DNA from: Candidatus Zixiibacteriota bacterium
GTDB taxonomy: Bacteria > Zixibacteria > MSB-5A5 > GN15 > FEB-12
Direction: 5' to 3'
Length of the DNA stretch: 64,000 nt
Assembly: GCA_034003725.1 (NCBI GenBank)
Contig: JAVEYB010000002.1
Span: forward strand, 142,568-206,567
Part shown: piece by piece, positions 15,073 through 64,000 of the stretch
Layout of the letters: the number at the start of each line of letters is the position of its first letter
How positions within the stretch are numbered: the stretch's first letter is position 1
The notes under the pieces: model-generated
What the model saw: only the letters and a program-made list of their open reading frames with translations
What the model was told of the DNA's origin: nothing
The model's database searches: none
Program-made: the position numbers and the translations under genes

Positions 15073-15074
15073 AG

Positions 15075-15096: not shown

Positions 15097-15097
15097 T

Positions 15098-15250
15098 GAT
15101 CGAGATGAAAGACAGGGTCGTCGGCGCACGAGGACGTACGCCAACCACGAATCGGGAGGGGTCGTCGGCGCACGAGGACGTACGCCAACCACGAATCGAG
15201 ATGAAAGACAGGGTCGTCGGCGCACGGGGACGTACGCCAACCACGAATTA
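15098..15250 (+). repeat. Three ~40-bp direct repeats in the imuA leader
   Basis: GGGTCGTCGGCGCACGAGGACGTACGCCAACCACGAATCG at 15115-15154 and 15159-15198. A third copy with a few changes is at 15211-15248. ATCGAGATGAAAGACA precedes copies 1 and 3. Confidence 0.9.
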
Positions 15251-15265
15251 GTAATAAGGGAAGAT

Positions 15266-17510: not shown

Positions 17511-17633
17511 AGGGGTGTGGGGTTATGTTGATCTGTCACCCTTCGACCCGTCTCGGCGGGCTCAGGGTGAGGGGGGCTGGGGCGTGCACGAGTTCGGGAT
17601 GATATAGGCGGGGAGGAGGTAGTATGAGAAGTA

Positions 17634-46628: not shown

Positions 46629-49600
46629 ATGCAAGATTCGAACAATACAACGAGTCCTGAGCGTCAGATGATCGAGCTACTGCCGGTGGCCGTGCTGGAA
46701 CTGGACCTTTCGGGTTTGCGGCCGGTATTGCTCCGGTGGTCGAATGAAAACAGGTCATCGGATGGGCGACCGGCCGCCGACGCTTACGAGGCGGGTGCCG
46801 GGACGATTCGTATCGTTTCTGTCAACGCCGCGGCCCGTGAGATACTGGTTCCTTCGGGTGGAGCAGGGACGGAAATAGCGTCGACCTGGGTTGCTGATGC
46901 CGTGGTTGATGCGGCGGGTGTGCTGTTGTCCGGGGGGCGCGGCTTTATACCGACTCGTATCGCGGCAGGCGAGGGGAACTGGATTGCAGTGCAGGCCCAA
47001 TTGCTTTTGCCTTCGGGAGCGGAAGGCGCGTGGACGCCAAGTTACCTTGTGTTGCGATCTTCGTCGGAGCATTCATCCCGGGTCGACAGGAGCGCCACCG
47101 AGGCGCACCGGATGCGGTCGATGCTTGACGCGGCACCGGTAGGATACCAGTCGCTGGATTCGGACGGTCGCATACTTGAAGTCAACGCCGCGTGGCTCGA
47201 GACTCTGGGTTTCCGTCGCGAGGAAGTCATCGGGCGGTCGCTGGCAGACTTCATGACGGAGCCTCATCGGGCCCGGTTCCACGAGTCGTTTTCGCGATTC
47301 AAGAAGGCGGGATTCGCCACCGGAGTCGAATACGATCTGGTACGAAGCGACGGGTTGGTGCTCTCCCTGCTGTTCAACGGACGGATCCTCTACAACGAGG
47401 ACGGTTCGGTCGACCGGACGATCTGCATCATGCACGACATCACGGAGCGTCGCCAGATGGAGGACGAGCTGCGGGAGAGCGAACTGCGCTTCCAGCAGTT
47501 AGCTTCGACGATCAACGAGCTGTTCTGGCTGCGCACCGAGCGTGAGATGTTGTATGTCAGTCCGGCGTACGAGCGCATTTTCGGGCGAACCTGCCTGTCG
47601 TTGTATGAAGATCATTTGTCGTTTCTGGAGGGCATACACCCGGCCGACCGCGACCTGCTTCGCATGGCCCACGAGCGGGAATGGGAACGGGGCGTGCCGG
47701 TCGATACGGAGGTTCGGGTCGTTCGCAGTGACGGAACGACGCGCTGGATATGGATACGTACGTTTCACGTGCACGGCAAAGACGGCGAGGTTGTTCGGAG
47801 CGCCGGAATCGCCGAGGATATCACGGACCGGAAGTACGCGGAGGAGGCGCTGCACGAAAGTATTGCGCGGTTCCGGAACATTGTGGAGGCTGCCGAGGCC
47901 GGGTATTTCTTTGTCGACCTGGAAGGGCGTTACGGCTATGTGAACCTTGCGTGGCTGCGGATGCACAAGTACTTGTCGCCGGGCGAGGTGATCGGACGTC
48001 CGTTCGAGATCACGACGCCGGCGATCGACAGTCATCTTGCCCCGGTGGATATCGAATCGATGTTGTCCTCGGAGAACGGCTTTCAGTGCGAGTGTGCGCG
48101 GTTGTGCAAGGACGGATCGATCGGCTATCATTTGTTTTCCGGCAATCCGGTAGTCGCGAACGGACGACAGATCGGCATTGAAGGGTTTCTCATCGACATC
48201 ACCGACCGGAAGATTGCGGAGCAGGCGCTTCGGGAGTCCGAAGAGAGATTTCGGGCGGCGTTTCAAACCAGCCCGGACGCGATCGCGATCAACCGCGAGT
48301 CCGACGGCATGTACGTGGACATCAATGAGGGGTTCGAGCGGATCACGGGCTATCGGCGCGAGGATATTGTCGGGGTAACGTCGCTCGATATGGACATCTG
48401 GGTGGATCGTGCGGACCGCGTGCGGCTGGTCGATGCGCTGAGCGAGCGCGGGTACATGGACAACCTCGTGGCGCAATTCCGGATGAAGGACGGTCGGATC
48501 ATCACGGGCAACATGTGCGCCCGAAGCTTCATGATTGCCGGGCTTCGGCACAATTTGACGATAACGCGTGATATCACCAGGGAGACAGCGGCCCAGGCCG
48601 TTTTGGCGAAACGCGACCGGGTGTTGTCGGCGGTTGCGACGGTGGCCGACGTGTTGCTGAGGAGCGAGGATATCAAGGGGGCTCTTGACGAGGTATTGCG
48701 GGTGATCGGACAGGCGGCGGAGGTGAGCCGCGTCTATGTGTTTCGCAACGACCGTGACACGCGGTACGACCTAACCTGTTCGCAGATTGCAGAGTGGGCG
48801 GACGAGGGGATCGAGCCGCAGATCAACAATCCTGAGATGCAGCGGCTGTCGTACACAGAGACGGGAATCGACTACTGGATTGCGACGCTCGGCAATAACG
48901 ATGCGATATTCGGCGAGACCGATTCATTCGACGACCCCATCCGGTCCGTGTTCGTCGACCAGGATATCCAGTCGGTCGCGATCGTTCCGATCTTTGCGGC
49001 GAATCGATGGTGGGGGTTCATGGGGTTCGATGACTGCCGCCAGCGGAGACAGTGGAGCCGGACGGAACTGGATGCGCTCAGGTCTGCGGCGGGCATAATC
49101 GGCGCGCGAATCGAGCGGCACCGGGCCGAACAGGAGCTTCGGGAGAGCGAAACGAAGTTCCGGGAGATCGCCGAGATGCTGCCCGAGGCGGTTTTCGAGA
49201 GCGATGCAGAGGGGCGTATCACCTATGCGAATCAGAAGGCGACCCAGTATTTCGGTTTCGAAACCAGGGATTACAGCCGGGGCCTGAGCATACTGGATGT
49301 GATTGTGCCGGAGGAACGGGAACGCGCGTTGGCCAGCCATCAGCAACTGTTGCGGACGGGAGAGCATGGCGTAGTCGAATACACGGGGGTGCGAAAGGAC
49401 GGCGTCAAATTTCCCATCAGTGTCCGCTCCAGCCGGATAGTTCGCAACGGCGTGCCGGTCGGCACGCGCGGAGTCGTGATCGATATCTCGATGGAGAAGG
49501 CCTACGAGCGGGAGCAACTTCGGTCTCAGAAGCTCGAGTCGCTGGGCATTCTGGCGGGAGGGCTTGCGCATGACTTCAATAACCTTCTGACGGGTATTCT

Positions 49601-50660
49601 GGGCAATATCTCGATCGCCCGTCTTTCGGAAAAACTGGACACGGAAACGGACCAGGGACTTGAGGTCGCGGAGCGGGCGGCGATGCGGGCCCGGGATTTG
49701 ACACAGCAACTGCTCACGTTTTCCAAAGGCGGAGAACCGGTGAAGAAAGTGATCTCGGTGGAACCCGTACTCCGGGAATCGGTGACGTTCGCGTTGCGGG
49801 GATCTAATGTCCGGGCGGAGATTTCGATTGCCGAGGATTTGAAGTGCATCGACGCGGACGCCGGCCAGATAAGCCAGGTGATACACAACCTTACGATCAA
49901 CGCCGTGCAGGCCATGCCGGAGGGGGGGACGATTACGGTCCGTGCGTGCAACCGCCTGATAAAGCCGCACAGCCATCCTGCGCTCGGCGACGGAGCCTAT
50001 GTGGAGATTTCTGTTGCGGACGAGGGGTTGGGAATCCCGGAGCGTCTACTTGCACGGATATTCGACCCATACTTCACGACAAAACAAACCGGCAGCGGAC
50101 TGGGACTGGCGTCATCGTATTCGATCGTTAAGAAGCACGGGGGGCATATCGACGTGTCTTCGATTCAGGGAACGGGCACGACGTTCACGGTTTACCTGCC
50201 CGCCTGCGGCGTGAACGCAACACCGGACCCGCAGGGTGAGGAGTTACCGGCGGTCGGGTCGGGGCGGATCCTACTGATGGATGACGAGGGGTACATTCGT
50301 GATCTTGCGACCAGGGTTTTGTCCAAAGCCGGATTCGAGATAGACTGCGCAGCGCACGGGCGGGAAGCTATAGAACTATTCGAGGCGGCGCGCAGCTCGG
50401 GAGTACCCTACGATGTCGTGATTCTGGACCTGACGGTTCCCGGCGGAATGGGCGGGCGCGAGACACTTGAGCACCTGCAGACGATTGACCCGGGTGTTCG
50501 CGCTATCGTGTGCAGCGGATATTCCAACGATCCCATACTGTCCCGATACGGGGAGGTCGGTTTTGCGGCCATGGTGACCAAGCCGTACCGGCCCGGGGAG
50601 CTGGTTCAGGCCGTGACGGTGGTACTCGGGTCCGAACGTGTCCGGTCCCGCGCGAATTAA
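46629..50660 (+). CDS. Hybrid sensor histidine kinase (multiple PAS, one GAF, HisKA, HATPase_c, C-terminal receiver)
   Basis: At least five PAS blocks ending in ..DITERRQ/DITDRK.. linkers and a GAF block. H-box LAGGLAHDFNNLL, G-boxes ..GLGIP..GSGLGLA.., and a receiver ILLMDDE..VILDLTVPGGMGG..KP. Confidence 0.9.
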   Translation: MQDSNNTTSPERQMIELLPVAVLELDLSGLRPVLLRWSNENRSSDGRPAADAYEAGAGTIRIVSVNAAAREILVPSGGAGTEIASTWVADAVVDAAGVLLSGGRGFIPTRIAAGEGNWIAVQAQLLLPSGAEGAWTPSYLVLRSSSEHSSRVDRSATEAHRMRSMLDAAPVGYQSLDSDGRILEVNAAWLETLGFRREEVIGRSLADFMTEPHRARFHESFSRFKKAGFATGVEYDLVRSDGLVLSLLFNGRILYNEDGSVDRTICIMHDITERRQMEDELRESELRFQQLASTINELFWLRTEREMLYVSPAYERIFGRTCLSLYEDHLSFLEGIHPADRDLLRMAHEREWERGVPVDTEVRVVRSDGTTRWIWIRTFHVHGKDGEVVRSAGIAEDITDRKYAEEALHESIARFRNIVEAAEAGYFFVDLEGRYGYVNLAWLRMHKYLSPGEVIGRPFEITTPAIDSHLAPVDIESMLSSENGFQCECARLCKDGSIGYHLFSGNPVVANGRQIGIEGFLIDITDRKIAEQALRESEERFRAAFQTSPDAIAINRESDGMYVDINEGFERITGYRREDIVGVTSLDMDIWVDRADRVRLVDALSERGYMDNLVAQFRMKDGRIITGNMCARSFMIAGLRHNLTITRDITRETAAQAVLAKRDRVLSAVATVADVLLRSEDIKGALDEVLRVIGQAAEVSRVYVFRNDRDTRYDLTCSQIAEWADEGIEPQINNPEMQRLSYTETGIDYWIATLGNNDAIFGETDSFDDPIRSVFVDQDIQSVAIVPIFAANRWWGFMGFDDCRQRRQWSRTELDALRSAAGIIGARIERHRAEQELRESETKFREIAEMLPEAVFESDAEGRITYANQKATQYFGFETRDYSRGLSILDVIVPEERERALASHQQLLRTGEHGVVEYTGVRKDGVKFPISVRSSRIVRNGVPVGTRGVVIDISMEKAYEREQLRSQKLESLGILAGGLAHDFNNLLTGILGNISIARLSEKLDTETDQGLEVAERAAMRARDLTQQLLTFSKGGEPVKKVISVEPVLRESVTFALRGSNVRAEISIAEDLKCIDADAGQISQVIHNLTINAVQAMPEGGTITVRACNRLIKPHSHPALGDGAYVEISVADEGLGIPERLLARIFDPYFTTKQTGSGLGLASSYSIVKKHGGHIDVSSIQGTGTTFTVYLPACGVNATPDPQGEELPAVGSGRILLMDDEGYIRDLATRVLSKAGFEIDCAAHGREAIELFEAARSSGVPYDVVILDLTVPGGMGGRETLEHLQTIDPGVRAIVCSGYSNDPILSRYGEVGFAAMVTKPYRPGELVQAVTVVLGSERVRSRAN

Positions 50661-50796: not shown

Positions 50797-52653
50797 ATGC
50801 GCAAGAGTCCGTTGGTCCTGGGGCTTGTACTGCTTGTTTGTCTGCTGGCATCGCCGAAGGCGGTTCAGGCGGACTCTACCGAAACGTTACTGCCGATCGG
50901 GTTGACGGAGGAGGAAAAGGGGCGTCTGCACGAAATCGGCAAGAATCATACGGTGACGAAGGCGCCGACCGGCGTGCTGCGGAATCCGGCGGAGTGGGAA
51001 CCCTCGGAGGGGGTGATTATTCGCTGGCCTCTCGGGATATCGGTTGCGCTGGTTCGCGAGATGTCGGAGGACCTGATGGTTACGACTATCGTCGCCAACT
51101 CGAGCGAGCAGGCCTCGGCAACGAGCGCATACCAGAGCGGGGGGGTGGTGATGGCCAACACGCAGTTCCTGATTGCATCGACAAATTCGATATGGACCCG
51201 CGACTATGGACCATGGTTCATATTCTCGGATGAAGCGCTGGGTATCGTGGACCACATCTACAACCGACCGCGTCCGCTTGACGACCTGATTCCCGGCATA
51301 CTCGGCAGTCAGTGGGGTATTCCGGTGTACGGGATGGACCTGATTCACACGGGCGGCAACCACATGTCCGACGGACTGGGCCGTTCGATGTCGACGCGGC
51401 TGGTCTACAACGAGAATTCCGGCAAGACGCCCGCGCAGGTTGATTCGATCATGCTCGCGTACCTGGGCAACGACTATACGGTGCTGGACTATATTGAGAG
51501 CGGCGGCATTCACCATATCGATTGCTGGGCGAAGTTTCTGAGTCCGACCACCATAATGGTGAAGGATGTTCCGGTGGGCGATTACAGCTATGAGTTGCTG
51601 AATGACCGTGCCGAGTACCTCTCCCAGCAGGTATCCGCATGGGGGCAGCCGTACACGATCGTACGGGTGTATTGTCCGTACGGCACCGCTTATACCAATT
51701 CGATTATTCTGAACGACAAAGTGCTGGTGCCGATATTCGGTTCCGGATACGACAATATCGCGTTACAGACGTACCGCGACGCGATGCCCGGATATGAGGT
51801 GATCGGTTTTACGGGATCCTGGTACGATGACGACGCCGTTCACTGCCGGACGATGGGGGTCCCGGATCGATACATGCTGCGCGTACACCACGTGCCGCTG
51901 GTTCGTGTCGCGGACTCGCTTGCCGGGTATGAGATCAGCGCGCTGATTCATGCGTGTTCCGGAGCGGCGCTGATTGGCGACTCGCTGAAGGTAGTGTATC
52001 GGGTCGGAGAAGGGGAGTGGGAAAGCGCGTTGCTCAGCGCCGGGACGGAGACGGACTGGTTTGACGGGACTCTTCCACCGCAGGCTTCAGGGGCGGAGGT
52101 CTCTTACTACGTTCAGGCGGCCGACCTGTCCGGCCGGATGGAGACCCACCCATATATCGGAGCGCCGGGGGCGCACCGCTTTTCCGTCAATATCACACCG
52201 ACGATAGTGGCGGATTCGAGCATTCTGTGTACCGGCGGAACCACTATTGCGTTCTGTCCGGATATTGTCGACGGTGAAGATTCCTCTCATACGATCACGT
52301 ATGCGAACTACCCAGCGTGGTTGTCGCCGTCGGGAGACAGCCTTACAGGCACGGTGCCGATGGGGATGACATCGACGGGTTCGTTTGATGTAGTTGTCAG
52401 TGATGCATACAACAGCGCAGCTCAGACAGTGGCGCTGGATGTGATCCTCTGCGGAGATGTGAACGACGATGCCATCGGTCCTGATCTTTCCGATTTGATA
52501 TACCTGGTCAACTATCTGTTCCTGTCGGGTCCGGCGCCGAATTCGGCGACGGCGTCGAACGTGGACGGGGTCGGGGGAGTGGACTTGTCGGATCTTATCT
52601 ACCTGGTCAACCTGCTGTTCATGGGCGGACCGCCGGCAACCTGCGGGCTCTGA
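50797..52653 (+). CDS. Secreted agmatine deiminase / Porphyromonas-type peptidylarginine deiminase family enzyme with Ig-like domains and dockerin-like tail
   Basis: Signal peptide. IWTRDYGPWF, GGNHMSDG, GGIHHIDCWAKF and the catalytic-Cys motif DDAVHCRTMGVP are PAD_porph family hallmarks. Tail module at 52450-52650. Confidence 0.85.
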   Translation: MRKSPLVLGLVLLVCLLASPKAVQADSTETLLPIGLTEEEKGRLHEIGKNHTVTKAPTGVLRNPAEWEPSEGVIIRWPLGISVALVREMSEDLMVTTIVANSSEQASATSAYQSGGVVMANTQFLIASTNSIWTRDYGPWFIFSDEALGIVDHIYNRPRPLDDLIPGILGSQWGIPVYGMDLIHTGGNHMSDGLGRSMSTRLVYNENSGKTPAQVDSIMLAYLGNDYTVLDYIESGGIHHIDCWAKFLSPTTIMVKDVPVGDYSYELLNDRAEYLSQQVSAWGQPYTIVRVYCPYGTAYTNSIILNDKVLVPIFGSGYDNIALQTYRDAMPGYEVIGFTGSWYDDDAVHCRTMGVPDRYMLRVHHVPLVRVADSLAGYEISALIHACSGAALIGDSLKVVYRVGEGEWESALLSAGTETDWFDGTLPPQASGAEVSYYVQAADLSGRMETHPYIGAPGAHRFSVNITPTIVADSSILCTGGTTIAFCPDIVDGEDSSHTITYANYPAWLSPSGDSLTGTVPMGMTSTGSFDVVVSDAYNSAAQTVALDVILCGDVNDDAIGPDLSDLIYLVNYLFLSGPAPNSATASNVDGVGGVDLSDLIYLVNLLFMGGPPATCGL

Positions 52654-52798: not shown

Positions 52799-55294
52799 AT
52801 GAGCGGATGGAGTGCGTGCCTGGCGAAACCGGGCATTACCACGATTCTTGTTTTGATCATCGTGAGTGGCGGCATCGCTCAGACGGATTCGGTGACGCCG
52901 GGGTACCGGATGCCGCCTGAGGAGATAGCGGCGTTAATCGACGCGCCGTGGACGCCGTCGGTGTACATCAGCCCCGACCGTGAGTGGATGCTGTTGGCGT
53001 CGTGGCCGGGTCTGCCGCCTCTGGAAGAGGTGGCCCAGCCGGAGCTTCGGCTTGCCGGTCTTCGTATCAACCCGCGGACCAACGGACCGAGCCGGGCGTG
53101 GTTTGCGTCGGCCCTGTCGTTCAAACGCATGTCCGACGGGGCGGAGTTTCCAGTCACCGGACTTCCGGAATCTCCCCGTATCACGAGCATCACCTGGTCG
53201 CCCGACGGGAGCAAGGTGGCATTCGCGTTGACCCTCGAGCGTCATATCGAGTTGTGGGTGGTGGAGGTCGAGGCAGCGGCTGCACGACGGCTGATGGATC
53301 GTCCGCTGAACGCGATTGACGGCAGTCCGTTCTCATGGCTGTCGGACAACGAGACGATCATCGCGCGCACGGTCCCGGAGGGTCGTGGTGAGCCACCGGC
53401 GGAGCCGCTGGTACCGGCGGGACCGGTAATCCAGGAAAACCTGGGGCGGGTGGCGGCAGCTCGCACGTATCAGGATCTGCTCGAAAACGAATATGATGAG
53501 GCGCTCTTTGATTACTATGCGACCTCGCAGATTGTCCGGGTGGGGGCGGATGGAGGGGTAACGGATATCGGCGGGGAGGGTGTCCACGCCGCCGTTCTTC
53601 CATCGCCGGACGGCAACTTCCTCCTGGTGGAGACGATGCACCGTCCGTACTCCTACACGGTTCCGGCGGACCAGTTCCCGTTGCGGTCGGTGGTGTGGGA
53701 TCGAAACGGCAACGAGGTGTACGAGGTGGCGGATCAGCCGCTGGCGGACCAGATACCGCTGGCGTTCGGATCGGTACGGAGCGGTCGGCGGTCGATCGAC
53801 TGGCGGGCCGACGCGGACGCGACGCTGTATTGGGCCGAAGCGCTCGATGGCGGCGACGCGGGTGTCGAAGCAGATGCACGGGATCGGATATTCATGCTGT
53901 CGGCCCCGTTCACGGGCGACCCTGTGGTACTGTTCACGGTACCGGATGTTCGCTATTCGAGTATCACGTGGGGCAATGACGAGCTGGCGATCGTATCGGG
54001 CTGGTGGTGGTCCAACCGCAAGATAAAGACATGGCGTATACTTCCGGGGGATCCAGCCGCCGAGGCGGTGTTGCTTCAGGATCGTTCGTGGGAAGATCGC
54101 TACAATGACCCCGGCAGTCCGCTGACGACGCGCACCCGGTACGGGACGTACGTGCTGATGACCGCGAATAACGGGAACACGATTTTTCTGTCGGGCAGCG
54201 GCGCGTCGCCCGAAGGGGACCGGCCATTCCTGGACGCGCTCGATCTGACGACGCTCACGACCACGCGGCTGTTCCGGTCGGAGGCGCCGTATTATGAGTC
54301 GGTGGTGACGCTTCTGGATGCGGAGAGTCGGTTGCTGTTGACGCGCAGGGAATCCGTAACGGAGCCGCCGAATTATTTCGTCCGCGACCTGGTGAATGAC
54401 GAGCTGACCCAGAAGACGGATTTCCCGCACCCGACGCCACAGCTTGCCGACGTACGCAAGGAGCAGGTTCGATACCAGCGCGCCGATGGGGTGCACCTGA
54501 CCGCGACGCTGTATACGCCGCCGGGGTATGACCCGGCGAAGGACGGCGCGCTGCCGATGTTGATGTGGGCCTATCCTCAGGAGTACAAGAGCGCTGATGC
54601 GGCGGGGCAGGTAACGGATTCACCGTATCGGTTCATTCGCGTCTCCTGGTCATCGCCGCTTCTCTGGCTGGTCCGGGGCTATGCCGTACTCGACGATCCG
54701 GGCATGCCGATTGTCGGCGAGGGGGACGAAGAACCAAATGACAGCTATGTCGAGCAGCTGGTATCGAGCGCGCAGGCGGCGGCAGACGAGATGGTGCGGC
54801 GGGGCGTGGCCGATCCGGACCGGATCGCAGTCGGCGGGCATTCGTACGGCGCGTTCATGACGGCGAATCTGCTGGCGCACTCGGACATATTCCGGGCCGG
54901 GATCGCCCGCAGCGGCGCATACAACCGCACGCTGACACCGTTTGGTTTCCAGTCGGAAGAACGGACGTACTGGGAAGCGCCGGAGATTTACAATACGATG
55001 TCACCGTTCATGCAGGCCGACAAGATCAACGAGCCGATTCTTCTGATTCACGGCGAGGCGGACAACAACTCGGGGACATTCCCGATGCAGAGCGAGCGTT
55101 TCTACGGCGCCCTGAAGGGGCTCGGGGCCACGGTTCGGCTGGTTATGCTGCCTCATGAGAGTCACGGATACCGCGCCCGCGAGTCGGTGATGCATGTTTT
55201 GTGGGAAACGTCCGAGTGGCTCGATCGGTATGTCAAAAACGCGGAGCCGATGTCAGTCACACGCGAAGTAGACGTGCCGGTTGAGGCCAGGTAG
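52799..55294 (+). CDS. Prolyl oligopeptidase family (S9) serine peptidase with N-terminal beta-propeller
   Basis: N-terminal signal/anchor. Nucleophile elbow GGHSYGAFM, ..IHGEADNN.. (Asp) and ..PHESHGY.. (His). Confidence 0.9.
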   Translation: MSGWSACLAKPGITTILVLIIVSGGIAQTDSVTPGYRMPPEEIAALIDAPWTPSVYISPDREWMLLASWPGLPPLEEVAQPELRLAGLRINPRTNGPSRAWFASALSFKRMSDGAEFPVTGLPESPRITSITWSPDGSKVAFALTLERHIELWVVEVEAAAARRLMDRPLNAIDGSPFSWLSDNETIIARTVPEGRGEPPAEPLVPAGPVIQENLGRVAAARTYQDLLENEYDEALFDYYATSQIVRVGADGGVTDIGGEGVHAAVLPSPDGNFLLVETMHRPYSYTVPADQFPLRSVVWDRNGNEVYEVADQPLADQIPLAFGSVRSGRRSIDWRADADATLYWAEALDGGDAGVEADARDRIFMLSAPFTGDPVVLFTVPDVRYSSITWGNDELAIVSGWWWSNRKIKTWRILPGDPAAEAVLLQDRSWEDRYNDPGSPLTTRTRYGTYVLMTANNGNTIFLSGSGASPEGDRPFLDALDLTTLTTTRLFRSEAPYYESVVTLLDAESRLLLTRRESVTEPPNYFVRDLVNDELTQKTDFPHPTPQLADVRKEQVRYQRADGVHLTATLYTPPGYDPAKDGALPMLMWAYPQEYKSADAAGQVTDSPYRFIRVSWSSPLLWLVRGYAVLDDPGMPIVGEGDEEPNDSYVEQLVSSAQAAADEMVRRGVADPDRIAVGGHSYGAFMTANLLAHSDIFRAGIARSGAYNRTLTPFGFQSEERTYWEAPEIYNTMSPFMQADKINEPILLIHGEADNNSGTFPMQSERFYGALKGLGATVRLVMLPHESHGYRARESVMHVLWETSEWLDRYVKNAEPMSVTREVDVPVEAR

Positions 55295-55372: not shown

Positions 55373-58300
55373 TTGTCGGATATATGGTATCGTGAATCAG
55401 ACACATGGTATAAAGTCATACCCGTCGAGGATCTCGGGACGGTATACCAGGTGATTCTGGGGCAGATTCAGCACGAATCATCACCTGCATCTCCCGCTAT
55501 GTCTGCTTCCCGGGAGGCTTCAACGGCAATCAGTCGGCCGTGCGAGTCAGAGATTCGTCGGCCCGCAGGGGTACAGACATTGGCGGTAGAGCACCAGCAT
55601 TCCGAGCAATCGCGCTCCGGTGAGCTTCCGGCAGTGGGGGAGACGGTATCTCATTACCGGTTGTTGCAGCCGCTGGAAGATGACTACGAGCAGGCGGCGT
55701 TCATGGCGGAAGATCTGGAATTGAACCGCCGCGTGTGTCTCAGATTCCTCCCGTCACCACACTGGCAGAATCCCGACCGGGTTGAACAATTTCGACAGGA
55801 TGTACGAAAGACAGGTTCGGTTCGCAGTCCGCACATTGTGGCGGTCCACGAACTGGCGATCGTTGATTCAAGGCCGTTTGCGGTTTTTGAGTGTGTGTCC
55901 GGATTTACGCTTGCCGATTTGGTTGCGGACGCGCGCCGGCATCCAATAGTGGAGTTGGGGGATATCCTGATGCAGGCCGGGCGCGGGCTTCAGACCGCAC
56001 ACGATATCGGCGTAGCCCACCTCCAGTTGCGACCGTCCAATGTGGGGCTGGATCCGCAGCACCGGGCAATCCTGACGGGGTTCGCGTTTGGCGGACCGTT
56101 CGACGGGGTGTTTGATGATCGCGGGGGCAGCTCGCGGGCCTACGAATATGCCGCTCCGGAGCAGTTGGAGGGGGGGCGGCAGGACTATCGCAGCGACATT
56201 TTCGCGCTCGGCGTCATCATGTACGAGACGCTGACCGGGACACATCCGTTTCGTTCGGAGTCGCGACGCGCCACGGTGCGGGCGATCCTCGAGAACGATC
56301 CGGTCCCGGTGACGGACCTTCGTGCGGGACTCCCGGAGCAGGTCGGCGATGTTGTTGCGCGGGCGCTCGAGAAGAGACCCGAGGAGCGGTTCCAGAGGGT
56401 GGATCATCTGCTGAACGCGTTTTCTCACGCGCTTGCGGAAGTTCGTCTGGAGGATTCCCGGGAATTTCTGATAAACGTAATCAACGGGCTGGACGACCCG
56501 GTGTTCGTGAAGGACGAAAACCACCGCTGGGTGATTCTCAACGACGTCATGTGCGAGCTGATGGGCCGTCCCCGTGAGGAGCTAATCGGGAAAAGCGATT
56601 ACGAGATCTTTCCGCGCGAGCAGGCGGACGTGTTCTGGGCGTACGACGCGCTGGTGCTTCGCACCGGCAAAACCAGCGTCAACGAGGAAGAAATCACGTT
56701 CAAGGGCGTCACGCGCACGATCTCCACCAAGAAGTCCATCCTTCGGGAGCCCGAGTCCGGGCGCCGGTTCATTGTCGGGACGATCAGGGACATCACTGAT
56801 CAGAAGGAGCTGGCCCGCGAGTTGGAGGAGCGACACCGGAGGTACGAGCTGGCGGCGCGAGGGGGGAACGTCGGTGTATGGGACTGGGATCTTCAGACGG
56901 ACCACCTGTTTGTCGATCCGCACATCAAGAGCCTGCTGGGGTTCGCGGACGAGGAGATTTCGAACACCCTGGATGCCTGGCTGAACCATGTTCATCCGGA
57001 TGACCGAAGCTCCCTGGTGACGTCGGTGCGTCGATATCTCAAAGGGGATGCGGACCAGTATGAGGTTGAGCACCGGATGCATCATCGGGACGGCAGTCTT
57101 CGTTGGATCCTCATGCGCGGGGCGATCGTACGGGACGAGCACGGCGATGCGGTCCGGATGATCGGAACGCAGAGTGACGTGACTCGTTTCAAGCAGGCGG
57201 AGAACGCACTGCGCGAGAGCGAAGAGAAGTACCGGAGCGTGGTCGAGCGGGCGAGCGACGGCATCTGTATCGTGCACGAGAACCGGATAGTCTACGCCAA
57301 TCGTCGTCTGGCCGATATGGTGGGGCTGGACGAGCGCGAGTTGATTGGCACGCACTATACGGAGTATATCCATTCCAGCGAGATATCAAAGGTTGCGCAG
57401 ATGTATGCGGCGCGGATGGCGGGCAAGGACGTGCCGCAGCAGTACGAAACGGTCCTGGTGACGGTGGCGGGCGAGAGTCTGCATGTGGAGTTCAACTCGG
57501 CGGCGATACCGTACGAAGGGCGGCGCGCCGTGCTGGCGATTATTCGGGACATCACAGAACGTCGCAAAGCCGACGCGGCGTTGAGGGAAAGCGAGCGGAC
57601 GGCCCGTGCGCTCATTAACGCGCCGACCGACGACGTGGTTGTGCTGCTCACGACCGAGGGGCACATCATCGACTCCAACGAACAACTGGCGCGTCGTTTC
57701 GGAATGACGATAAGCGAGATTATGGGCAAGAGTGCATGGGAGTTGTTTCCCTCGGACGTCAGCCGCTTCCGACTGGACCAGCTCCAGAAAGTGGTTGAGT
57801 CGCGCAAGCCGGTGCGATTCGAGGACGAGAGTCACGGGCGGTGGTTCGACCATATTCTGTATCCTGTGCTGGACCGCCGGGGCGAGGTAGGCAAGATAGC
57901 CGTGATTGCTCGTGACGTTACGGAGAGCCGGCTCGCGCACCGGGCGCTGCGAGAGAGCGAACAGTCCCTCGAGGAGGCGCAGCGTATTGCGCACGTCGGG
58001 AGCTGGCGACTACCGGTAGGCGGCGACGCGGCGACCTGTACGGACGAGGTATATCGGATAGTGGGTATCGAACCGGGATCGGTTCCGCCGTCGCTCAGCG
58101 CTTTCCTGACGTTCGTGCATCCCGACGATCGGGACCAGGTGGAGTCCGCGATTCGCCAATCGATGCAATCAGGACAGCGGTACGATCTGCGACACCGCGT
58201 GGTACGGCCTGACGGTTCTACCCGATTCCTGCATGGGCGGGCGGAGGTGCGGATAGATGATGACGGCCGGCCGGTGGAGCTGATCGGTACGATGCATGAC

Positions 58301-59911
58301 ATCACGGATCTTGTCCGAGCTGAACAGGCTCTTCGCATTCGGGAGGCGGAGTATCGGGCAGTGGTAGAGATGCAAACGGAGTTCATCTGCCGTTTGCGAC
58401 CGGACGGAGTGCTGACATTCGTCAATGACGCATTTTGCCGGCAGTTCAATCGCACGCGCGAAGAGCTTATAGGTACCGACCTGACAGACCTGTTTCCGGC
58501 GGAGGAACGCGCCGCCATACGGGACGGGCTGACACGGTGCGGTTCGGAGGCTCACGGTGTTTCACAGGAGCGGCGGATTGTTCTGCCCGGGGGGGAGGTC
58601 CGATGGCAGTTGTGGAACGACCGGGCCGTTCTGGACGAGGCCGGGGCCGTGGTCGGATATCAATCGGTGGGGCGTGATGTGACCAAGCGGCGGGAGGCCG
58701 AGGATGCGCTGCGCGAGAGCGAAGAGCGGTTCAGGACGCTCACCGAGCTGTCACCGGACGGGATTTTCGTAATTGCCGACAGGCGGATCGTGTTCGCCAA
58801 CCGGGCTGCTGTGCATTTTGTCGGGGCGGAAGCCGCTGAAGATCTGGCAAACCTGGATCCGCTCGATCTCGTCCACCCGGACTTTCAGGCGGACCTGCTC
58901 ACGCGTTTTGACGACCTGGTGGCCGATCGCATAACTGCGCATGCGATAGAGGGGACGCTCGTGCGACGGGATGGGCAACAGGTAATGGCCGAAGTAATTG
59001 CCGCCCCACTGACCTACAAGGGGCGTCCTGCTGTTCAGATGGTGGTGCGCGATATCACCGAACGAAAGCGTGCTGACGAGGTGTTACGGGAATCGGAGGA
59101 GAAATACCGACTGCTGGTCGAAAACCAAACGGACCTGGTGGTGAGGGTCGACACGGAAGGTCGGTTCACGTTTGTGAGTCCGTCCTATTGCCGGACGTTT
59201 GGCATGGCCGCCGAGGACCTTGTCGGGACGACATTCTGGCCGCTTGTGCATGCCGATCATCATGAGGCGACTCGAAGGGCCATGGAGGATCTGTACCGGC
59301 CACCATACGAATGCTATGTCGAGCAGTTGGCCAGGACGAAGGAGGGCTGGCGCTGGTTCGCGTGGGCAGACAAGGCGATTCTGGACCGCGAGCATCGGGT
59401 CACCGCGATCGTGGCTGTGGGGCGCGATATTACCGAACGAAAGGAAGCGGAGGCGTTACTTCGCAAGACGACAGACGAACTCGAAACTGAACGCGCCGCT
59501 CTTCTCGAGAAGAACATTACTCTGAAACAGGTACTCGAACATATTGAGATGGAGCGAAAGGATTTTCGGACGCAGACGTTTAAGGCGTTGGAGGATACGA
59601 TTGAACCGGTTCTTCAGAGGTTGCGCGAGATATCGGATAGCCGGGGAGCAGTGGAGATCGACCGTTTAGAGAGAAATGTTAAGGCCATAATAAATAAGGA
59701 CATAGACGAGTTTAAGGCACGATTTGCACGTTTGACCGCCCGGGAATCGGAGATATGTGGCATGATTAAGCGGGGATTGTCATCGAAGGAGATTTCAGAG
59801 AGTCTGAACCTGTCGTTGTTGACCGTCCACAAGCATCGTGAGCGCATTCGCCGCAAGTTGGAAATCACATCGAAAGATGTCGACCTAAGTACCTTCCTAA
59901 AGCTCCACTAG
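55373..59911 (+). CDS. Hanks-type pseudokinase domain + eight PAS domains + coiled coil + LuxR-type HTH
   Basis: A kinase-like fold is present (APE, DIFALGVIMYETLTG) but VAIK is VCLR, HRD is HLQ and DFG is GFA. Eight PAS blocks. C-terminal TARESEICGMIKRGLSSKEISESLNLSLLTVHKHRERIRRKL. The start is uncertain (TTG 55373 abuts the terminator; ATG 55499 is an alternative). Confidence 0.85.
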   Translation: MSDIWYRESDTWYKVIPVEDLGTVYQVILGQIQHESSPASPAMSASREASTAISRPCESEIRRPAGVQTLAVEHQHSEQSRSGELPAVGETVSHYRLLQPLEDDYEQAAFMAEDLELNRRVCLRFLPSPHWQNPDRVEQFRQDVRKTGSVRSPHIVAVHELAIVDSRPFAVFECVSGFTLADLVADARRHPIVELGDILMQAGRGLQTAHDIGVAHLQLRPSNVGLDPQHRAILTGFAFGGPFDGVFDDRGGSSRAYEYAAPEQLEGGRQDYRSDIFALGVIMYETLTGTHPFRSESRRATVRAILENDPVPVTDLRAGLPEQVGDVVARALEKRPEERFQRVDHLLNAFSHALAEVRLEDSREFLINVINGLDDPVFVKDENHRWVILNDVMCELMGRPREELIGKSDYEIFPREQADVFWAYDALVLRTGKTSVNEEEITFKGVTRTISTKKSILREPESGRRFIVGTIRDITDQKELARELEERHRRYELAARGGNVGVWDWDLQTDHLFVDPHIKSLLGFADEEISNTLDAWLNHVHPDDRSSLVTSVRRYLKGDADQYEVEHRMHHRDGSLRWILMRGAIVRDEHGDAVRMIGTQSDVTRFKQAENALRESEEKYRSVVERASDGICIVHENRIVYANRRLADMVGLDERELIGTHYTEYIHSSEISKVAQMYAARMAGKDVPQQYETVLVTVAGESLHVEFNSAAIPYEGRRAVLAIIRDITERRKADAALRESERTARALINAPTDDVVVLLTTEGHIIDSNEQLARRFGMTISEIMGKSAWELFPSDVSRFRLDQLQKVVESRKPVRFEDESHGRWFDHILYPVLDRRGEVGKIAVIARDVTESRLAHRALRESEQSLEEAQRIAHVGSWRLPVGGDAATCTDEVYRIVGIEPGSVPPSLSAFLTFVHPDDRDQVESAIRQSMQSGQRYDLRHRVVRPDGSTRFLHGRAEVRIDDDGRPVELIGTMHDITDLVRAEQALRIREAEYRAVVEMQTEFICRLRPDGVLTFVNDAFCRQFNRTREELIGTDLTDLFPAEERAAIRDGLTRCGSEAHGVSQERRIVLPGGEVRWQLWNDRAVLDEAGAVVGYQSVGRDVTKRREAEDALRESEERFRTLTELSPDGIFVIADRRIVFANRAAVHFVGAEAAEDLANLDPLDLVHPDFQADLLTRFDDLVADRITAHAIEGTLVRRDGQQVMAEVIAAPLTYKGRPAVQMVVRDITERKRADEVLRESEEKYRLLVENQTDLVVRVDTEGRFTFVSPSYCRTFGMAAEDLVGTTFWPLVHADHHEATRRAMEDLYRPPYECYVEQLARTKEGWRWFAWADKAILDREHRVTAIVAVGRDITERKEAEALLRKTTDELETERAALLEKNITLKQVLEHIEMERKDFRTQTFKALEDTIEPVLQRLREISDSRGAVEIDRLERNVKAIINKDIDEFKARFARLTARESEICGMIKRGLSSKEISESLNLSLLTVHKHRERIRRKLEITSKDVDLSTFLKLH

Positions 59912-60309: not shown

Positions 60310-60337
60310 TTGACACCACAACATGGATAGTTATATC
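60310..60337 (+). promoter_or_regulatory. Sigma70-like promoter for the histidine kinase operon
   Basis: TTGACA (60310-60315), 16-nt spacer, TATATC (60332-60337), ~40 nt upstream of ATG 60375. Confidence 0.5.
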
Positions 60338-60374
60338 TTTTAATCCAGAATTCTTCGACTGGTGACTTGATTCA

Positions 60375-62120
60375 ATGCTGCTGCCCCATGGTCGGCTTCG
60401 CTTGCCGGTAACCAGCGGCGGGATGGCCAAAACGGTGTTTATGAGAAAGAGGACGGTTATTCTACCGGAATTCCTGCCGTTTGACGGGCAGCATTACCGG
60501 GAGTTGAGACGCAGAATCACCGTCCGTTTACTCCTGTTATATCTCGGGCCGGTTGTTCTACTGGCTGCATATTTTTATTTTCAGTATGATGCCATAGTAT
60601 CGGAGAGCAATCGCCTTCATCTGCAAGCGATAGCCGAGAGCCAGGCCAAGACGCTGGATCTGTTTTTGTCGGAACGACTGGTGAATCTGTCGAACGTGGT
60701 AGATGATCCGCGCCTGGTTTTCCCTCCGACCTCAGAGTCGATGGAGGGGAATCTTCTAAAGCTGAAGCGGTACAGCGACGCGTTCGTTGATTTCGGTTAT
60801 TTTGAATCGAGCGGTATCCAGTCGGCGTATGCGGGCCCGTACCCGTCGCTCGAAATGCGCAATTATCGGTCTGAGCCGTGGTACCAGACATTACACGATA
60901 CGGACACCGGTTTTGTCATTACCGACATTTATCTTGGATTTCGCAATCGGCCGCATTTCACGATGGCGGTGAGTCGGGTGGTCGGGGGGCAGTTTGTCGC
61001 TTATCGGGCGACGCTTGATCCTGAGCGGATATACGAGTATATCAGTTCATTTGGCGATGGCCAGGACGTGTTTACGTCGATTGTCAATGCGGCGGGAGAT
61101 TTCCAGCTTGTCGCACCGAGGATTGGCTCACCGCTGCAGCCAAGCGGAGTCACGCCGCCCCGGCTTCCTGCGCTGGGATTCCTGCGCACCGATTTGGGCG
61201 GAGCGACGAAGCCCCTGGCGTATTCCTGGCTTCGCAGCGCGGACTGGGCGCTGCTGGTGCAGGATGTGACGGATGAAACGGATGGCCTTCTGGCGGGGTA
61301 CCGGCTTCGGATTATCGGTATCGCCGCGGGCATGATCCTGGTGGGCTTTTTTATCATCGTCATCCGCGCCCGTCGGCAGGTCGACCTGCAGATGGAGAGC
61401 GACCGGACACGCGCCCAGCTCGAGCATGCGGCCAAGCTGGCGTCGGTCGGTGAGCTCGCGGCCGGGATCGCCCATGAGATAAACAACCCGCTGGCATCGA
61501 TCAACGAAGAGGCCGGTCTGGTACTGGACCTGTCAGATCCATCGTACGGCCAATCGATGTCTGCGGATGAACAGCGGGAACACCTGAAGTCAATACAGGA
61601 GCTCGTGTTTCGGTGTCGCGATATCACCCACAAGCTGCTCGGGTTCGTTCGCAAGTCGGACATGGACCTTCGGCAGCACAACATTCACACGCTCATCGAC
61701 GGAGTAATTGACGGCTTGCTGGGGCCGGAGGTTGCGGTGTCGAATGTGGAGATCCGGCGGCGGTATACTTCGGACAGCACCGTGATAATGACGGACGGCA
61801 ACCAGTTGCAGCAGGTGGTGTTGAATATCGTTAATAACGGTATCGATGCCACGGGGGGGCGTGGCGGCGTAATCGACATTGCGACCCAGGTGGTGGGGAG
61901 ACGTCTGTTCATATCAATTGCGGACAACGGCAAAGGCATATCGCCGGAGCAGATGGAGAAGATCTTCGTCCCGTTCTATACGACGAAGGACGTGGGGAAG
62001 GGTACGGGACTGGGGTTGTCGGTGAGCTACGGAATAATCAAGAATCTGGGGGGAGAGATTCAGGTGGAAAGTCAGCCCGGTCGGGGAAGCACGTTCACGG
62101 TGGTGCTGCCCCTTCGATAG
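60375..62120 (+). CDS. Membrane sensor histidine kinase with a periplasmic Cache-like domain
   Basis: Two TM helices flank a ~230-aa external domain. H-box ELAAGIAHEINNPLASI, plus N/G boxes ..NIVNNGIDA.. and ..GKGTGLGLSVSYGI... The start could be 60423 or 60441. Confidence 0.85.
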   Translation: MLLPHGRLRLPVTSGGMAKTVFMRKRTVILPEFLPFDGQHYRELRRRITVRLLLLYLGPVVLLAAYFYFQYDAIVSESNRLHLQAIAESQAKTLDLFLSERLVNLSNVVDDPRLVFPPTSESMEGNLLKLKRYSDAFVDFGYFESSGIQSAYAGPYPSLEMRNYRSEPWYQTLHDTDTGFVITDIYLGFRNRPHFTMAVSRVVGGQFVAYRATLDPERIYEYISSFGDGQDVFTSIVNAAGDFQLVAPRIGSPLQPSGVTPPRLPALGFLRTDLGGATKPLAYSWLRSADWALLVQDVTDETDGLLAGYRLRIIGIAAGMILVGFFIIVIRARRQVDLQMESDRTRAQLEHAAKLASVGELAAGIAHEINNPLASINEEAGLVLDLSDPSYGQSMSADEQREHLKSIQELVFRCRDITHKLLGFVRKSDMDLRQHNIHTLIDGVIDGLLGPEVAVSNVEIRRRYTSDSTVIMTDGNQLQQVVLNIVNNGIDATGGRGGVIDIATQVVGRRLFISIADNGKGISPEQMEKIFVPFYTTKDVGKGTGLGLSVSYGIIKNLGGEIQVESQPGRGSTFTVVLPLR

Positions 62121-62205
62121 CAGGACGGAAGCTGTGATTCGTATCGTTAACAGCAGATAGTCAGAGAACGGCTCAGGCACGAGACACATACAGGGATGCG
62201 GCAGT

Positions 62206-62757
62206 ATGAACAAGACGATAGTGCGCGAACTCATGGTACCGCTCGACGACTATGCGGTGGTCCCCGACACTGCCACGCTTCTTGATGCGGTGAAGGCTCT
62301 GGATCGGGCACAAGAGCGCCTTCCGGCGGGTCGTCAGCCGCACCGTGCGGTGCTGGTGGCGGATGCGTCGGGAGCTATCGTGGGCAAGATCGGGCAGCTG
62401 GGTTTCCTCAAGGGTCTCGAGCCCAAGTACAACATGCTGGGTGATCTGGACACGCTGGCGCGGGCCGGGGTGAGCGACACTCTCGTGTCGACCATGCGGG
62501 ATCACTTTCGGTATTTCGAAGACACGTTCAGCGACATATGTCAGCGGGGGGCGGTTATTCCGGTGCGTGAGGTGATGCACGCAGTTCGGGAGGGTATAGA
62601 CGAGAGCGCCACGCTCAGCGAGGCGCTGCACCAGTTAGTCATGTGGCAGCAGTTGTCGCTGCTGGTGACGCGGGGTGGTCGGGTCACGGGGTTAATTCGA
62701 CTGTCGGACCTCTTCGATGAGGTTGCCCGGCAGATGAAGGCGCAATCCCGCGCATGA
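62206..62757 (+). CDS. CBS-pair domain protein
   Basis: Two CBS motifs (..VRELMVPLDDYAVVPDTATLLDAVKAL.. and ..VREVMHAVREGIDESATLSEALHQLV..LLVTRGGRVTGLIRLSDL). Confidence 0.85.
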   Translation: MNKTIVRELMVPLDDYAVVPDTATLLDAVKALDRAQERLPAGRQPHRAVLVADASGAIVGKIGQLGFLKGLEPKYNMLGDLDTLARAGVSDTLVSTMRDHFRYFEDTFSDICQRGAVIPVREVMHAVREGIDESATLSEALHQLVMWQQLSLLVTRGGRVTGLIRLSDLFDEVARQMKAQSRA

Positions 62758-62781
62758 CGACGGTACACCTGGGAGAATGCT

Positions 62782-64000
62782 ATGGCGAAAGTACTTTTGG
62801 TAGACGACGAGGAGAAGTTCCGCACGTCGCTTGCCCGCCGCATGAACCTTCGGGGGTATGAGACCTCGGAAGTTGATAACGGAGAGGACGCCGTCAAGCG
62901 CATTCGTGCGGACGGCGATATCGACGTCGTTTTGCTTGACCGGACGATGCCGGGGATGAGCGGTGAACAAGCGCTCAAGGAGATGAAGAGTTTCCGTCCG
63001 GAGCTGCAGGTAATCATCCTGACCGGTCAGTCGACGCTGGAATCGGCGATGGAAACGGGTCGGCTGGAGGCCTACTCGTACCTTCGCAAGCCTTACGACC
63101 TCGACGATCTGCTCAAGATGGTCGACCGCGCGCGGGAAGACAAGGTGCATGCGATGGCGCGCCACGAGATCGTGCATGTAGAGAAGGGGTCGTTCTGGAA
63201 ATGGCTGGTGGGTTCGCACAATTCCCGCCCGCTGATAATCGGTCTGGGTATTGTGCTGTTCTGCGCGATCACGTTCATGCCGACGCCGGATCGGATGCTG
63301 GCGTTGTTGTCGGCGCCCAAGACTGGAGAGATGACCGACGCCAATTTCGGATATGCCAGCTACCGTTCGATGACGGAGGGGCAGACTATAGCCGATGCGT
63401 ACAGCAAGGAGGGAAAAGTCGCGAAGGTGTCGTACGAGGCCGACGGCAAAAGAGTATCGGTGCCTCTGACGCCGGAGGAGACGGCAACCAAGGCAAAGAT
63501 CATGCTTGCGGTGCTGGTGGTGGCGGCGCTGTTCTGGGCGAGCGGAGCGGTGCCGGTCGGGATATCGGCGCTCATCGTGGCATTAGCCATGTACTTCGGC
63601 GGAGTCATGCCTCCCGACTACATCGCGCAATCGTTTGCGAAGGATTCGGTGATATTCATTTTCGGTGTGCTGGCAATCTCATCGGCGATCAGCAAGACCG
63701 GCCTGGATCGACGGATCGGGCTCTTGATGCTTGGTCCGGCCAGAAACCTGCCCAAGTTACTGTTTCTCTTTTTGCCGCTGCTTGGGATGGCCTGCTCATT
63801 CGTGTCGGAGCATGCGCTGATTGCATTCCTGATGCCCCTGTTCATGGTGGTGTACACGACGGCGGTCAAAACGGCGGGGATCCGAAAGGACCGGGCACTG
63901 GCGGTCATGTTCGTGCTTTCGATGACGTATGTCGCGAACTCGGGAGGTCCCGGTTCGCCGGCTGCGGGAGGCCGCAACGCGGTGATGATGAGTATCCTGG
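62782..64000 (+). CDS. Response-regulator receiver domain fused to an SLC13/DASS-type anion permease (partial, runs off the window)
   Basis: Translated by hand; it is not in the ORF track because there is no stop in the window. MAKVLLVDDEE..VVLLDRTMPGMSG..IILTGQS..LRKPYD is an intact REC domain. TM helices follow, then ..VANSGGPGSPAAGGRNAVM.., a DASS-like hairpin motif. Confidence 0.85.
   Translation, partial: MAKVLLVDDEEKFRTSLARRMNLRGYETSEVDNGEDAVKRIRADGDIDVVLLDRTMPGMSGEQALKEMKSFRPELQVIILTGQSTLESAMETGRLEAYSYLRKPYDLDDLLKMVDRAREDKVHAMARHEIVHVEKGSFWKWLVGSHNSRPLIIGLGIVLFCAITFMPTPDRMLALLSAPKTGEMTDANFGYASYRSMTEGQTIADAYSKEGKVAKVSYEADGKRVSVPLTPEETATKAKIMLAVLVVAALFWASGAVPVGISALIVALAMYFGGVMPPDYIAQSFAKDSVIFIFGVLAISSAISKTGLDRRIGLLMLGPARNLPKLLFLFLPLLGMACSFVSEHALIAFLMPLFMVVYTTAVKTAGIRKDRALAVMFVLSMTYVANSGGPGSPAAGGRNAVMMSIL

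Follow-up and report, generated by a model that had tools for sequence, protein, structure and literature searches.

The DNA analysed here is a 64,000-nucleotide (nt) stretch of a Candidatus Zixiibacteriota genome, referred to below as the window. Its 3' end carries a small gene cassette specifying a sensor histidine kinase of the dCache type, a stand-alone CBS-pair protein, a receiver (REC) domain fused in frame to a membrane protein of the DASS/SLC13 family (REC-DASS) and, just past the window end, a second, free receiver (Table 1). The fusion gene runs off the 3' end of the window, and the remainder was read from locus L001, a contig that matches the window tail exactly (L001 7529–7558 corresponds to window 60310–60339).

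Table 1. Features of the REC-DASS cassette. Positions refer to the window or, where so marked, to locus L001; lengths are in nt, base pairs (bp) or amino acids (aa).
Feature	Position	Strand	Description
Promoter-like site	60310–60339	+	sigma-70-like TTGACA, 18 nt, TATCTT; kinase open reading frame about 36 nt downstream
Sensor histidine kinase	60375–62120	+	581 aa; transmembrane (TM) helix, periplasmic dCache_1, TM helix, HisKA, HATPase_c (Pfam)
CBS protein	62206–62757	+	183 aa; stand-alone CBS-pair (Bateman) protein; repeats separated by an insert of about 50 aa
REC domain of fusion	62782–63126	+	residues 1–115; Pfam E = 5e-24
Linker	63127–63219	+	residues 116–146; extended alpha-5 helix (107–127), then amphipathic juxtamembrane motif
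TM1	63220–63294	+	residues 147–171; from hydropathy, predicted helix 150–165; equals DASS TM1
Periplasmic insert	63295–63477	+	residues 172–232; 61 aa between TM1 and TM2
DASS/SLC13 core, N-terminal part	63478–64000	+	residues 233–406 of 677; TM2–TM4, HPin hairpin, TM5
Rest of fusion gene	L001 11220–12034		gene runs 813 nt past the window end
Free REC gene	L001 12051–12539		beyond the window end, 16 nt 3' of the fusion gene; 162-aa single-domain REC
GC-rich hairpin	L001 12567–12590		10 bp; 3' of the free REC gene; closes the unit

The Fusion Gene

The frame that begins at ATG 62782 on the forward strand is preceded, at a distance of 8 nt, by a GGGAG ribosome-binding site and remains open for 406 codons, up to the window end. 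The initial annotation, which was made from the window letters only, had reported this open reading frame as lacking a stop in the window and had described it as a receiver joined in frame to a polytopic membrane protein; the peptide strings quoted there were all found in the translation. In L001, the gene continues without a stop codon or frameshift between the receiver and membrane parts to a length of 677 aa, and a database protein of this length (P0001) is identical to the window translation over all 406 residues. The fusion is one uninterrupted gene, and the suggestion that it might resolve into two separate genes can be excluded.

The profile searches proposed at that time all gave matches above threshold. 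On the window part of the protein, Pfam returned Response_reg at residues 4–114 (E = 5e-24), CitMHS at 250–402 and Na_sulph_symp at 231–318, the last two exceeding their gathering scores, and the NCBIfam model TIGR00785 ('dass') aligned residues 231–406 to profile positions 3–184.

Among the database matches listed, at least 120 relatives share 62% identity or more with the window protein. Nearly all are about 677 aa long, most come from Zixibacteria and candidate division GN15, and their database names go no further than 'SLC13 family permease', 'anion permease' or 'response regulator'. A survey of the REC-DASS architecture and its gene neighbours, also proposed earlier, scanned one genome per species and found relatives in 523 species-level genomes; the best 80 loci gave identities of 58–88%, almost all covering residues 1–677. 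The organism labels of metagenome-assembled genomes (MAGs), including Ignavibacteriales, Acidobacteriota, Planctomycetota and others, were judged unreliable, and phylum-level spread is not claimed from them. With relatives in 523 genomes and invariant phospho-acceptor residues (see below), the REC-DASS fusion is a genuine conserved gene and not an artefact. One genome, JAHLKV01 MAG50, holds two REC-DASS paralogues (L005 and L055) that are 87% and 65% identical to the window protein, and at its second locus tblastn found no adjoining kinase or free receiver.

The Receiver Domain and Linker

The receiver covers 110 of the 111 positions of the Pfam PF00072 profile and carries the acidic pair D8/D9, the phospho-acceptor D53 and the switch residues T81, Y100 and K103. 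These are kept in 73–74 of the 74 sequences of the window protein's own family (family A), where the exception is one sequence gapped at D8 and D9, and in 20–23 of the 23 sequences of a second family of fusions (family B, described below). The solved receivers closest in sequence are those of NtrC1 and DctD (1zy2, 1ny5, 1qkk, 1l5y), Spo0F and NtrC. Modelling returned a receiver fold with a predicted local distance difference test (pLDDT) value of about 85 and a TM-score of 0.90 to receiver structures. The model used here is the second of two predictions and was built from an alignment of 124 sequences that included family B and unfused DASS proteins (mean pLDDT 85.6, predicted TM-score (pTM) 0.75); the first, which rested on 24 sequences, was of poor quality (mean pLDDT 53.8) and was discarded. 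By its sequence, the fusion protein carries a catalytically complete cytoplasmic receiver, in agreement with the intact domain (DD pair, acceptor Asp, Thr and Lys) that had been recognised by hand translation. Receivers of two divergent REC-DASS clusters are degenerate: in P0123 the DD pair is replaced by NC and D53 by E, and in P0128 the DD pair is replaced by ES. These may be phosphorylation-independent variants.

Helices are predicted in the linker region at residues 107–127 and 138–143. Directly before TM1 lies a conserved juxtamembrane motif, S-x-W-K-W-L-x-G-S-H-N-S-R-P, and residues A117, R118, K121, E129, S137, W141, L142, G144, H146, N147, R149 and P150, in or near the linker, are invariant. 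The same motif is found in relatives that bear a USP domain or have no N-terminal domain.

The Membrane Part

The initial annotation had likened the membrane part to the SLC13/DASS transporters, and the complete sequence bears this out. The full-length protein matches PF00939 (Na_sulph_symp) at positions 23–470 of 472 (E = 3e-36; 125.9 bits against a cut-off of 27) and VcINDY over residues 242–664 (E = 1e-19). Fold matches to the model include human NaS1 and NaCT, VcINDY (TM-score to target 0.83), AtDiT2.1 (0.85) and Pho90, and all 11 helices and both hairpins of the DASS fold are retained. Taken together, sequence and model describe a complete DASS (SLC13-type) elevator transporter, the DASS part alone scoring 163.4 bits against the TIGR00785 trusted cut-off of 198.6 and so falling short of it.

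Foldseek aligned the model to VcINDY, a target of 445 residues, over 536 columns, and the alignment must, for this reason, begin before the periplasmic insert. The first transmembrane helix then corresponds to TM1 of DASS, an equivalence that puts the receiver in the cytoplasm, joined to the elevator's scaffold domain. The insert itself is modelled as two short helices and a beta-hairpin (pLDDT 85–95), its region contains the invariant residues R171, K180, D186, G190, Y194, M197, Y207 and G222, and it is missing from family B and from clusters P0125, P0141 and P0158.

At the predicted substrate site, the HPin hairpin bears S342-E343-H344 and TM5 bears G396-G397-R398-N399. The GSPPN motif of VcINDY is here GGRN, with R398 invariant, and its TPPN is TPNN. 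Residues S342, H344, N386, R398, N399, S579, D580, G581, T623, P624 and N626 are invariant in family A, and the variant motifs (S-[E/D]-H, GGRNA, MSDG) recur in DASS relatives that are not fused and are as little as about 25% identical; the pattern marks a DASS subclade rather than a decayed site. The site residues match those of no characterised DASS member compared. As substrate, a divalent anion, whether inorganic or organic, is most likely. Sulfate counts as a candidate solely because the same four-component clusters have been described in sulfate reducers; a search for sulfur-metabolism genes within the 64-kb window, which might have lent support to sulfate, found none.

Partner Genes and Conservation of the Cassette

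The first gene of the cassette had been read as a Cache-type sensor kinase on the same strand as the fusion, and Pfam confirms this by identifying dCache_1, HisKA and HATPase_c. The dCache_1 score of 45.2 bits is just over the cut-off of 45, and the start of the gene is uncertain (ATG 60375 or 60423). The kinase retains an intact H-box (AHEINNPL) and intact N, G1, F and G2 boxes, and the nearest NCBIfam models to the kinase core are AtoS/ZraS-like. The promoter-like site ahead of it is a consensus match only, such sites being no more numerous than expected from shuffled sequence. Intergenic gaps are short, at 85 nt between the kinase and CBS genes and 24 nt between the CBS and fusion genes. 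For the CBS protein, the earlier assignment as a CBS pair stands in part: the repeat at residues 121–174 scores above the Pfam threshold (31.6 bits), and the one at 5–65 is recognised by eye only. A sequence search of the PDB gave one weak match to it (7msu, E = 0.001).

The initial annotation had seen a module of three genes, but there are four, the last being the free receiver past the window end. This protein has a C-terminal tail of 45 residues and is 42% identical to the receiver of the fusion.

Conservation of the cassette was assessed by tblastn with the four window proteins as queries against the best 80 loci, the denominators being those loci with enough flanking sequence (69 for the kinase and CBS genes, 75 for the free receiver and 66 for all four). 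The linkage of the fusion to a dCache kinase and a CBS protein, which had been noted in the window, proved to be conserved. A kinase lies upstream on the same strand in 67/69 loci, a CBS gene is present in 64/69 and a free receiver follows in 73/75, while kinase, CBS, REC-DASS and REC all occur in this order in 58/66. Nine loci have tandem CBS paralogues between the kinase and the fusion gene (for example, L005 3813–4379 and 4409–4975), and four have no CBS gene at all (L024, L046, L063, L067). At the loci inspected, the genes flanking the cassette vary between genomes, which indicates that it is self-contained. No DNA-binding domain was detected in any cassette protein at any locus inspected, whether of family A, family B or the two split loci described below.

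A PEP-synthase-type (phosphoenolpyruvate synthase) neighbour was considered as a further partner of the cassette and rejected, since it is recurrent but not general across loci. Examples are a PPDK_N/PEP-utilizers protein after the cassette in a Kapabacteria genome (L085 12515–15163) and in Alkalidesulfovibrio (L089 12529–13464), and a PpsR-like kinase/pyrophosphorylase before it in one Zixibacteria genome (L004 4697–5521).

Family B, Unfused Systems and Other Fusions

A search of 1.84 billion cluster representatives for remote relatives returned further REC-DASS clusters at 30–54% identity. One of these, P0158, leads to family B, a group of proteins of about 590 aa found in Ignavibacteria, Kapabacteria and the Bacteroidetes/Chlorobi group. 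Its cassette has the same four parts as that of family A in a rearranged order (CBS, REC-DASS, REC, dCache kinase). Between the two families the kinases are 41–46% identical, the CBS proteins 40% and the fused receivers 43%, compared with only 25% for the DASS parts, and the substrate-site residues of the family B DASS differ from those of family A. The free receiver is the most conserved part of the module, with the window protein 64% identical to one family B counterpart and 46% to another.

The DASS part of family B is 52–55% identical to unfused DASS proteins of Desulfovibrionales. Two loci of such split systems were read, in Alkalidesulfovibrio alkalitolerans DSM 16529 and Desulfocurvus vexinensis, and both show repeated CBS-DASS-REC sets beside dCache kinases, each CBS-DASS pair being followed by its own REC gene (137–149 aa). 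The kinase, CBS and REC proteins of these loci are 26–44% identical to those of the window (CBS alone, 26–35%). The sensor residues F137, D139, G141, Y152, G154, P155, Y164, W169, G188, R190, P193, H194 and F195 are invariant in family A, family B and the split systems, which would fit a shared class of ligand.

Another relative, P0129 (692 aa), carries a USP domain instead of REC. Its DASS part is 48% identical to that of the window fusion, with which it shares the juxtamembrane helix and the periplasmic insert, and relatives without any N-terminal domain were also found in the cluster-representative search. Fusions across this network (REC-DASS, USP-DASS and REC-CBS) form a pattern that is classically the mark of physically interacting proteins. 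A CBS (128 aa) and DASS (410 aa) pair without kinase or receiver lies 4 kb from a family B cassette (L086 67–1993, reverse strand), and suggests that CBS proteins partner DASS transporters more generally. A further lead, DVU0150, a small Pfam family beside a family B cassette (L085), led to papers on a syntrophy-induced operon of D. vulgaris and was dropped, no link being demonstrable.

Clusters of this kind have been reported from sulfate reducers. A 'DASS-type sulfate transporter' cluster is conserved in 26 of them (Desulfosarcina variabilis and 25 others) and includes DASS proteins, Cache kinases, response regulators, CBS proteins, USP proteins and a 'response regulator with CBS domain' (PMC11887813; Sci Adv 2025). 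The authors proposed that the kinase detects sulfate outside the cell and regulates expression, the CBS proteins adding a second level of control; sulfate as the ligand is a hypothesis in that study also. Marietou et al. (PMC5840216) described a DASS clade in sulfate reducers, with proteins of 474–691 aa, some of which are induced by low sulfate.

Proposed Mechanism and Alternatives

The composition of the cassette suggests a two-component system that acts post-translationally on a transporter, with the CBS protein supplying a second, intracellular input, and we regard this as, on balance, the probable arrangement, if only somewhat so. Through its dCache domain, the kinase would recognise a small molecule in the periplasm, probably an anion; it would then autophosphorylate and hand the phosphoryl group on, to the tethered receiver (at D53) as well as to the free one of 162 aa. 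Once phosphorylated, the two receivers beneath the DASS dimer would change their arrangement by way of the alpha4-beta5-alpha5 face and the extended alpha-5 helix, by analogy with NtrC1/DctD. From there the change could travel along the juxtamembrane helix into TM1, which belongs to the scaffold domain, and so permit or block the elevator movement of the transport domain, and uptake would be switched within seconds and without transcription. The CBS-pair protein would serve in trans as a second regulatory subunit that reports an intracellular adenosyl ligand or the energy state, and the free receiver may compete for phosphoryl groups or carry a parallel branch. Direct gating is favoured because the active-site residues of the receiver are invariant, because the cassette is without a DNA-binding output, and because the four parts are met again with another DASS clade and, as separate genes, in Desulfovibrionales.

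Several points weigh against this interpretation. The direction of information flow, from signal to transporter, is one that we infer. Conservation of the free receiver equals that of the fused one, and the true output of the system could therefore be a different one. Phosphorylation would appear to be dispensable in at least some lineages, as the receivers of P0123 and P0128 are degenerate. In the alignment to VcINDY, both of the Na+/substrate Ser-Asn-Thr (SNT) hairpin motifs are absent, S342-E343-H344 and S579-D580-G581 standing in their places, and with both motifs missing neither the substrate nor the coupling ion is assignable; transport activity is itself an assumption. The structure model is of a monomer and says nothing reliable about receiver docking. 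Lastly, the response regulators of the sulfate-reducer clusters have been called 'WalR type' and ascribed to transcriptional control (PMC11887813); the unfused systems inspected here comprise two loci of Desulfovibrionales.

The most serious competitor makes the DASS protein a flux sensor or phosphate sink, which reports its own transport state to the attached receiver. That receiver would drain phosphoryl groups from the kinase according to the occupancy of the transporter, the free 162-aa receiver would be the output, and information would pass from transporter to signalling pathway. This would account for a free receiver that is present in 73 of 75 loci and is better conserved between families (46–64%) than any other part of a module with no obvious other output. 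Transporters are, moreover, known as co-sensors of two-component systems, among them DctA and DcuB with DcuS, PstSCAB with PhoR, and BceAB with BceS, but these contact the kinase and not the receiver. In the split systems of Desulfovibrionales each CBS-DASS pair has a REC of its own, which looks like a one-to-one partner of the transporter, and the replacement of the receiver by USP on the same DASS clade has the appearance of alternative inputs to a transporter. No candidate target of the free receiver was found to be conserved in the flanks of the loci inspected. We consider the flux-sensor explanation unlikely and rank direct gating above it.

Lower in probability, and in our view quite unlikely, is a DASS protein that does not transport and acts as a receptor or anchor (a 'transceptor'), which would turn the fusion into a membrane-localised response regulator. 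DASS-like sensors exist, SAC1 of Chlamydomonas being the example, and the replacement of both SNT motifs (by SEH and SDG), together with a TIGR00785 score of 163 bits where the cut-off is 198.6, could be taken to point this way. Against it, family A shows no variation at the hairpin tips or in the motifs of TM5 and TM10, which are common to unfused relatives down to 25% identity, a pattern expected of a working binding site in a DASS subclade, and the protein keeps the 11 helices, both hairpins and TM-scores of 0.8–0.85 to transporters.

It is more doubtful again that control is only transcriptional, exerted by a DNA-binding regulator encoded elsewhere as was proposed for the sulfate-reducer clusters, and that the fusion is incidental. 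The cassettes of families A and B and the two split loci lack DNA-binding domains, and the 45-residue tail of the free receiver is too short for a winged-helix or LuxR domain. An N-terminal fusion of receiver to transporter, conserved in hundreds of species, would be left unexplained.

Some receivers function independently of phosphorylation, and the degenerate examples in the divergent clusters P0123 and P0128 raise the idea that the fused domain is a pseudo-receiver, a structural or dimerisation module that is never phosphorylated, while the kinase signals elsewhere. This is very improbable for the proteins considered here: families A and B invariably keep the complete acidic pocket with the acceptor Asp, Thr, Tyr and Lys, a kinase gene lies next to the fusion in 67 of 69 loci, and the 42% identity of fused and free receivers would fit a kinase common to both. 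That assembly or gene calling has wrongly joined two separate genes, for which nothing speaks except that the open reading frame runs off the window, is already refuted by the identical continuous frame in an independent contig, by at least 120 clusters of about 677 aa, by 80 genome loci that span the full length and by the conserved linker.

Implications

Response regulators are the textbook switches of transcription, and their other known outputs are enzymes and protein-binding or RNA-binding domains. A receiver-transporter fusion in a conserved operon with a kinase, and without a transcription factor, would, if the direct-gating mechanism is correct, couple membrane transport directly and rapidly to an extracellular signal. 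A broader proposal, offered tentatively and as something short of probable, is that secondary transporters form a true output class of two-component systems, with a portable set of parts (Cache kinase, receiver, CBS protein and sometimes USP) docking on the cytoplasmic side of DASS proteins to switch uptake post-translationally; the single-domain regulators of the sulfate-reducer clusters would likewise act on the transporter and not on DNA. The REC-DASS fusion would then be a 'Rosetta stone' for the unfused DASS clusters of these organisms, in which the regulation of anion uptake, possibly including dissimilatory sulfate uptake, would need to be reinterpreted. REC-DASS is in any case a large, uncharacterised and tractable family, with only four genes to consider and an unfused counterpart in cultured Desulfovibrionales, and it offers a natural design for engineered, signal-gated uptake.

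Other Genes of the Window

Directly upstream of the cassette (nt 55373–59911, forward strand) is a gene for an unusually large one-component-style regulator, a 1512-aa protein with a Ser/Thr kinase domain, eight PAS domains and a C-terminal LuxR/GerE helix-turn-helix. Further upstream is a 1343-aa hybrid histidine kinase (nt 46629–50660, forward strand) containing several PAS domains, GAF, HisKA, HATPase_c and a C-terminal receiver. The window also includes a group of neighbouring genes (nt 33786–37523, 37909–41952 and 42251–46147 on the reverse strand; nt 50797–52653 and 52799–55294 on the forward strand) comprising two C25 gingipain-like cysteine peptidases with propeptides, a 1347-aa dockerin-containing protein, a Porphyromonas-type peptidyl-arginine deiminase and an S9 peptidase, a combination that recalls the gingipain/PPAD set of Porphyromonas. 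An error-prone polymerase cassette at nt 14831–20744 (forward strand) consists of an imuA-like gene (RecA-fold), imuB (Y-family IMS) and dnaE2.

Comparison with Known Systems

A full-text literature search found no description of a receiver-transporter fusion; Galperin's response-regulator surveys, which lay outside the search, may list the architecture. The clusters of sulfate reducers (PMC11887813) resemble the window cassette in the co-location of DASS, Cache kinase, response regulator and CBS protein, but there the components are separate genes, whereas the window receiver is fused to the transporter. Compared with sulfate-reducer DASS proteins, here those of Desulfovibrionales, the window DASS is about 25–26% identical and has SEH, SDG and TPNN at the site positions where the sulfate-reducer type has FHD, SNS and CPPT. 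The two do not qualify as orthologs, given an identity of 26% against the 52–55% of family B and the different site residues. What was already known, then, are the four-component clusters of sulfate reducers; what is new is a two-component receiver whose predicted output is a DASS transporter. The fusion, the lack of a DNA-binding output in the loci inspected and direct action on the transporter are absent from both of the earlier studies (PMC11887813, PMC5840216).

With VcINDY and the SLC13 proteins NaS1, NaDC and NaCT, the window protein is homologous over the full length (E = 1e-19) and has its fold in common (TM-score to target 0.72–0.84). It differs from them in its N-terminal receiver, the 61-residue periplasmic insert, SEH/SDG in place of SNT and GGRN in place of GSPPN. 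A cytoplasmic regulatory domain at the N-terminus of a DASS protein is also found in the yeast phosphate transporters Pho87, Pho90 and Pho91, where an SPX domain controls transport, and Pho90 is among the fold matches. SPX binds inositol pyrophosphates, whereas the window domain is a predicted phospho-accepting receiver, and there is no sequence relationship between the two.

The best-characterised bacterial example of a phosphorelay domain fused to a secondary transporter is LacS of Streptococcus thermophilus, a lactose transporter with a IIA-like domain of the phosphotransferase system (PTS) that is phosphorylated by HPr(His~P), altering the kinetics of transport. LacS differs from the window protein in belonging to the GPH family, in the C-terminal position of the domain, in receiving its phosphoryl group on His from the PTS and in having no sensor kinase. 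In its sequence, and in the extended alpha-5 helix of the model (residues 107–127) that leads to the output, the window receiver resembles those of NtrC1 and DctD; their output is an AAA+ ATPase kept inactive by the receiver dimer, while that of the window protein would be a membrane transporter. Finally, CbrA, in which an SLC5-type transporter domain is fused to a histidine kinase, likewise joins a secondary-transporter domain to a two-component protein. The transporter of CbrA stands on the input side, and that of the window protein is predicted to stand on the output side.

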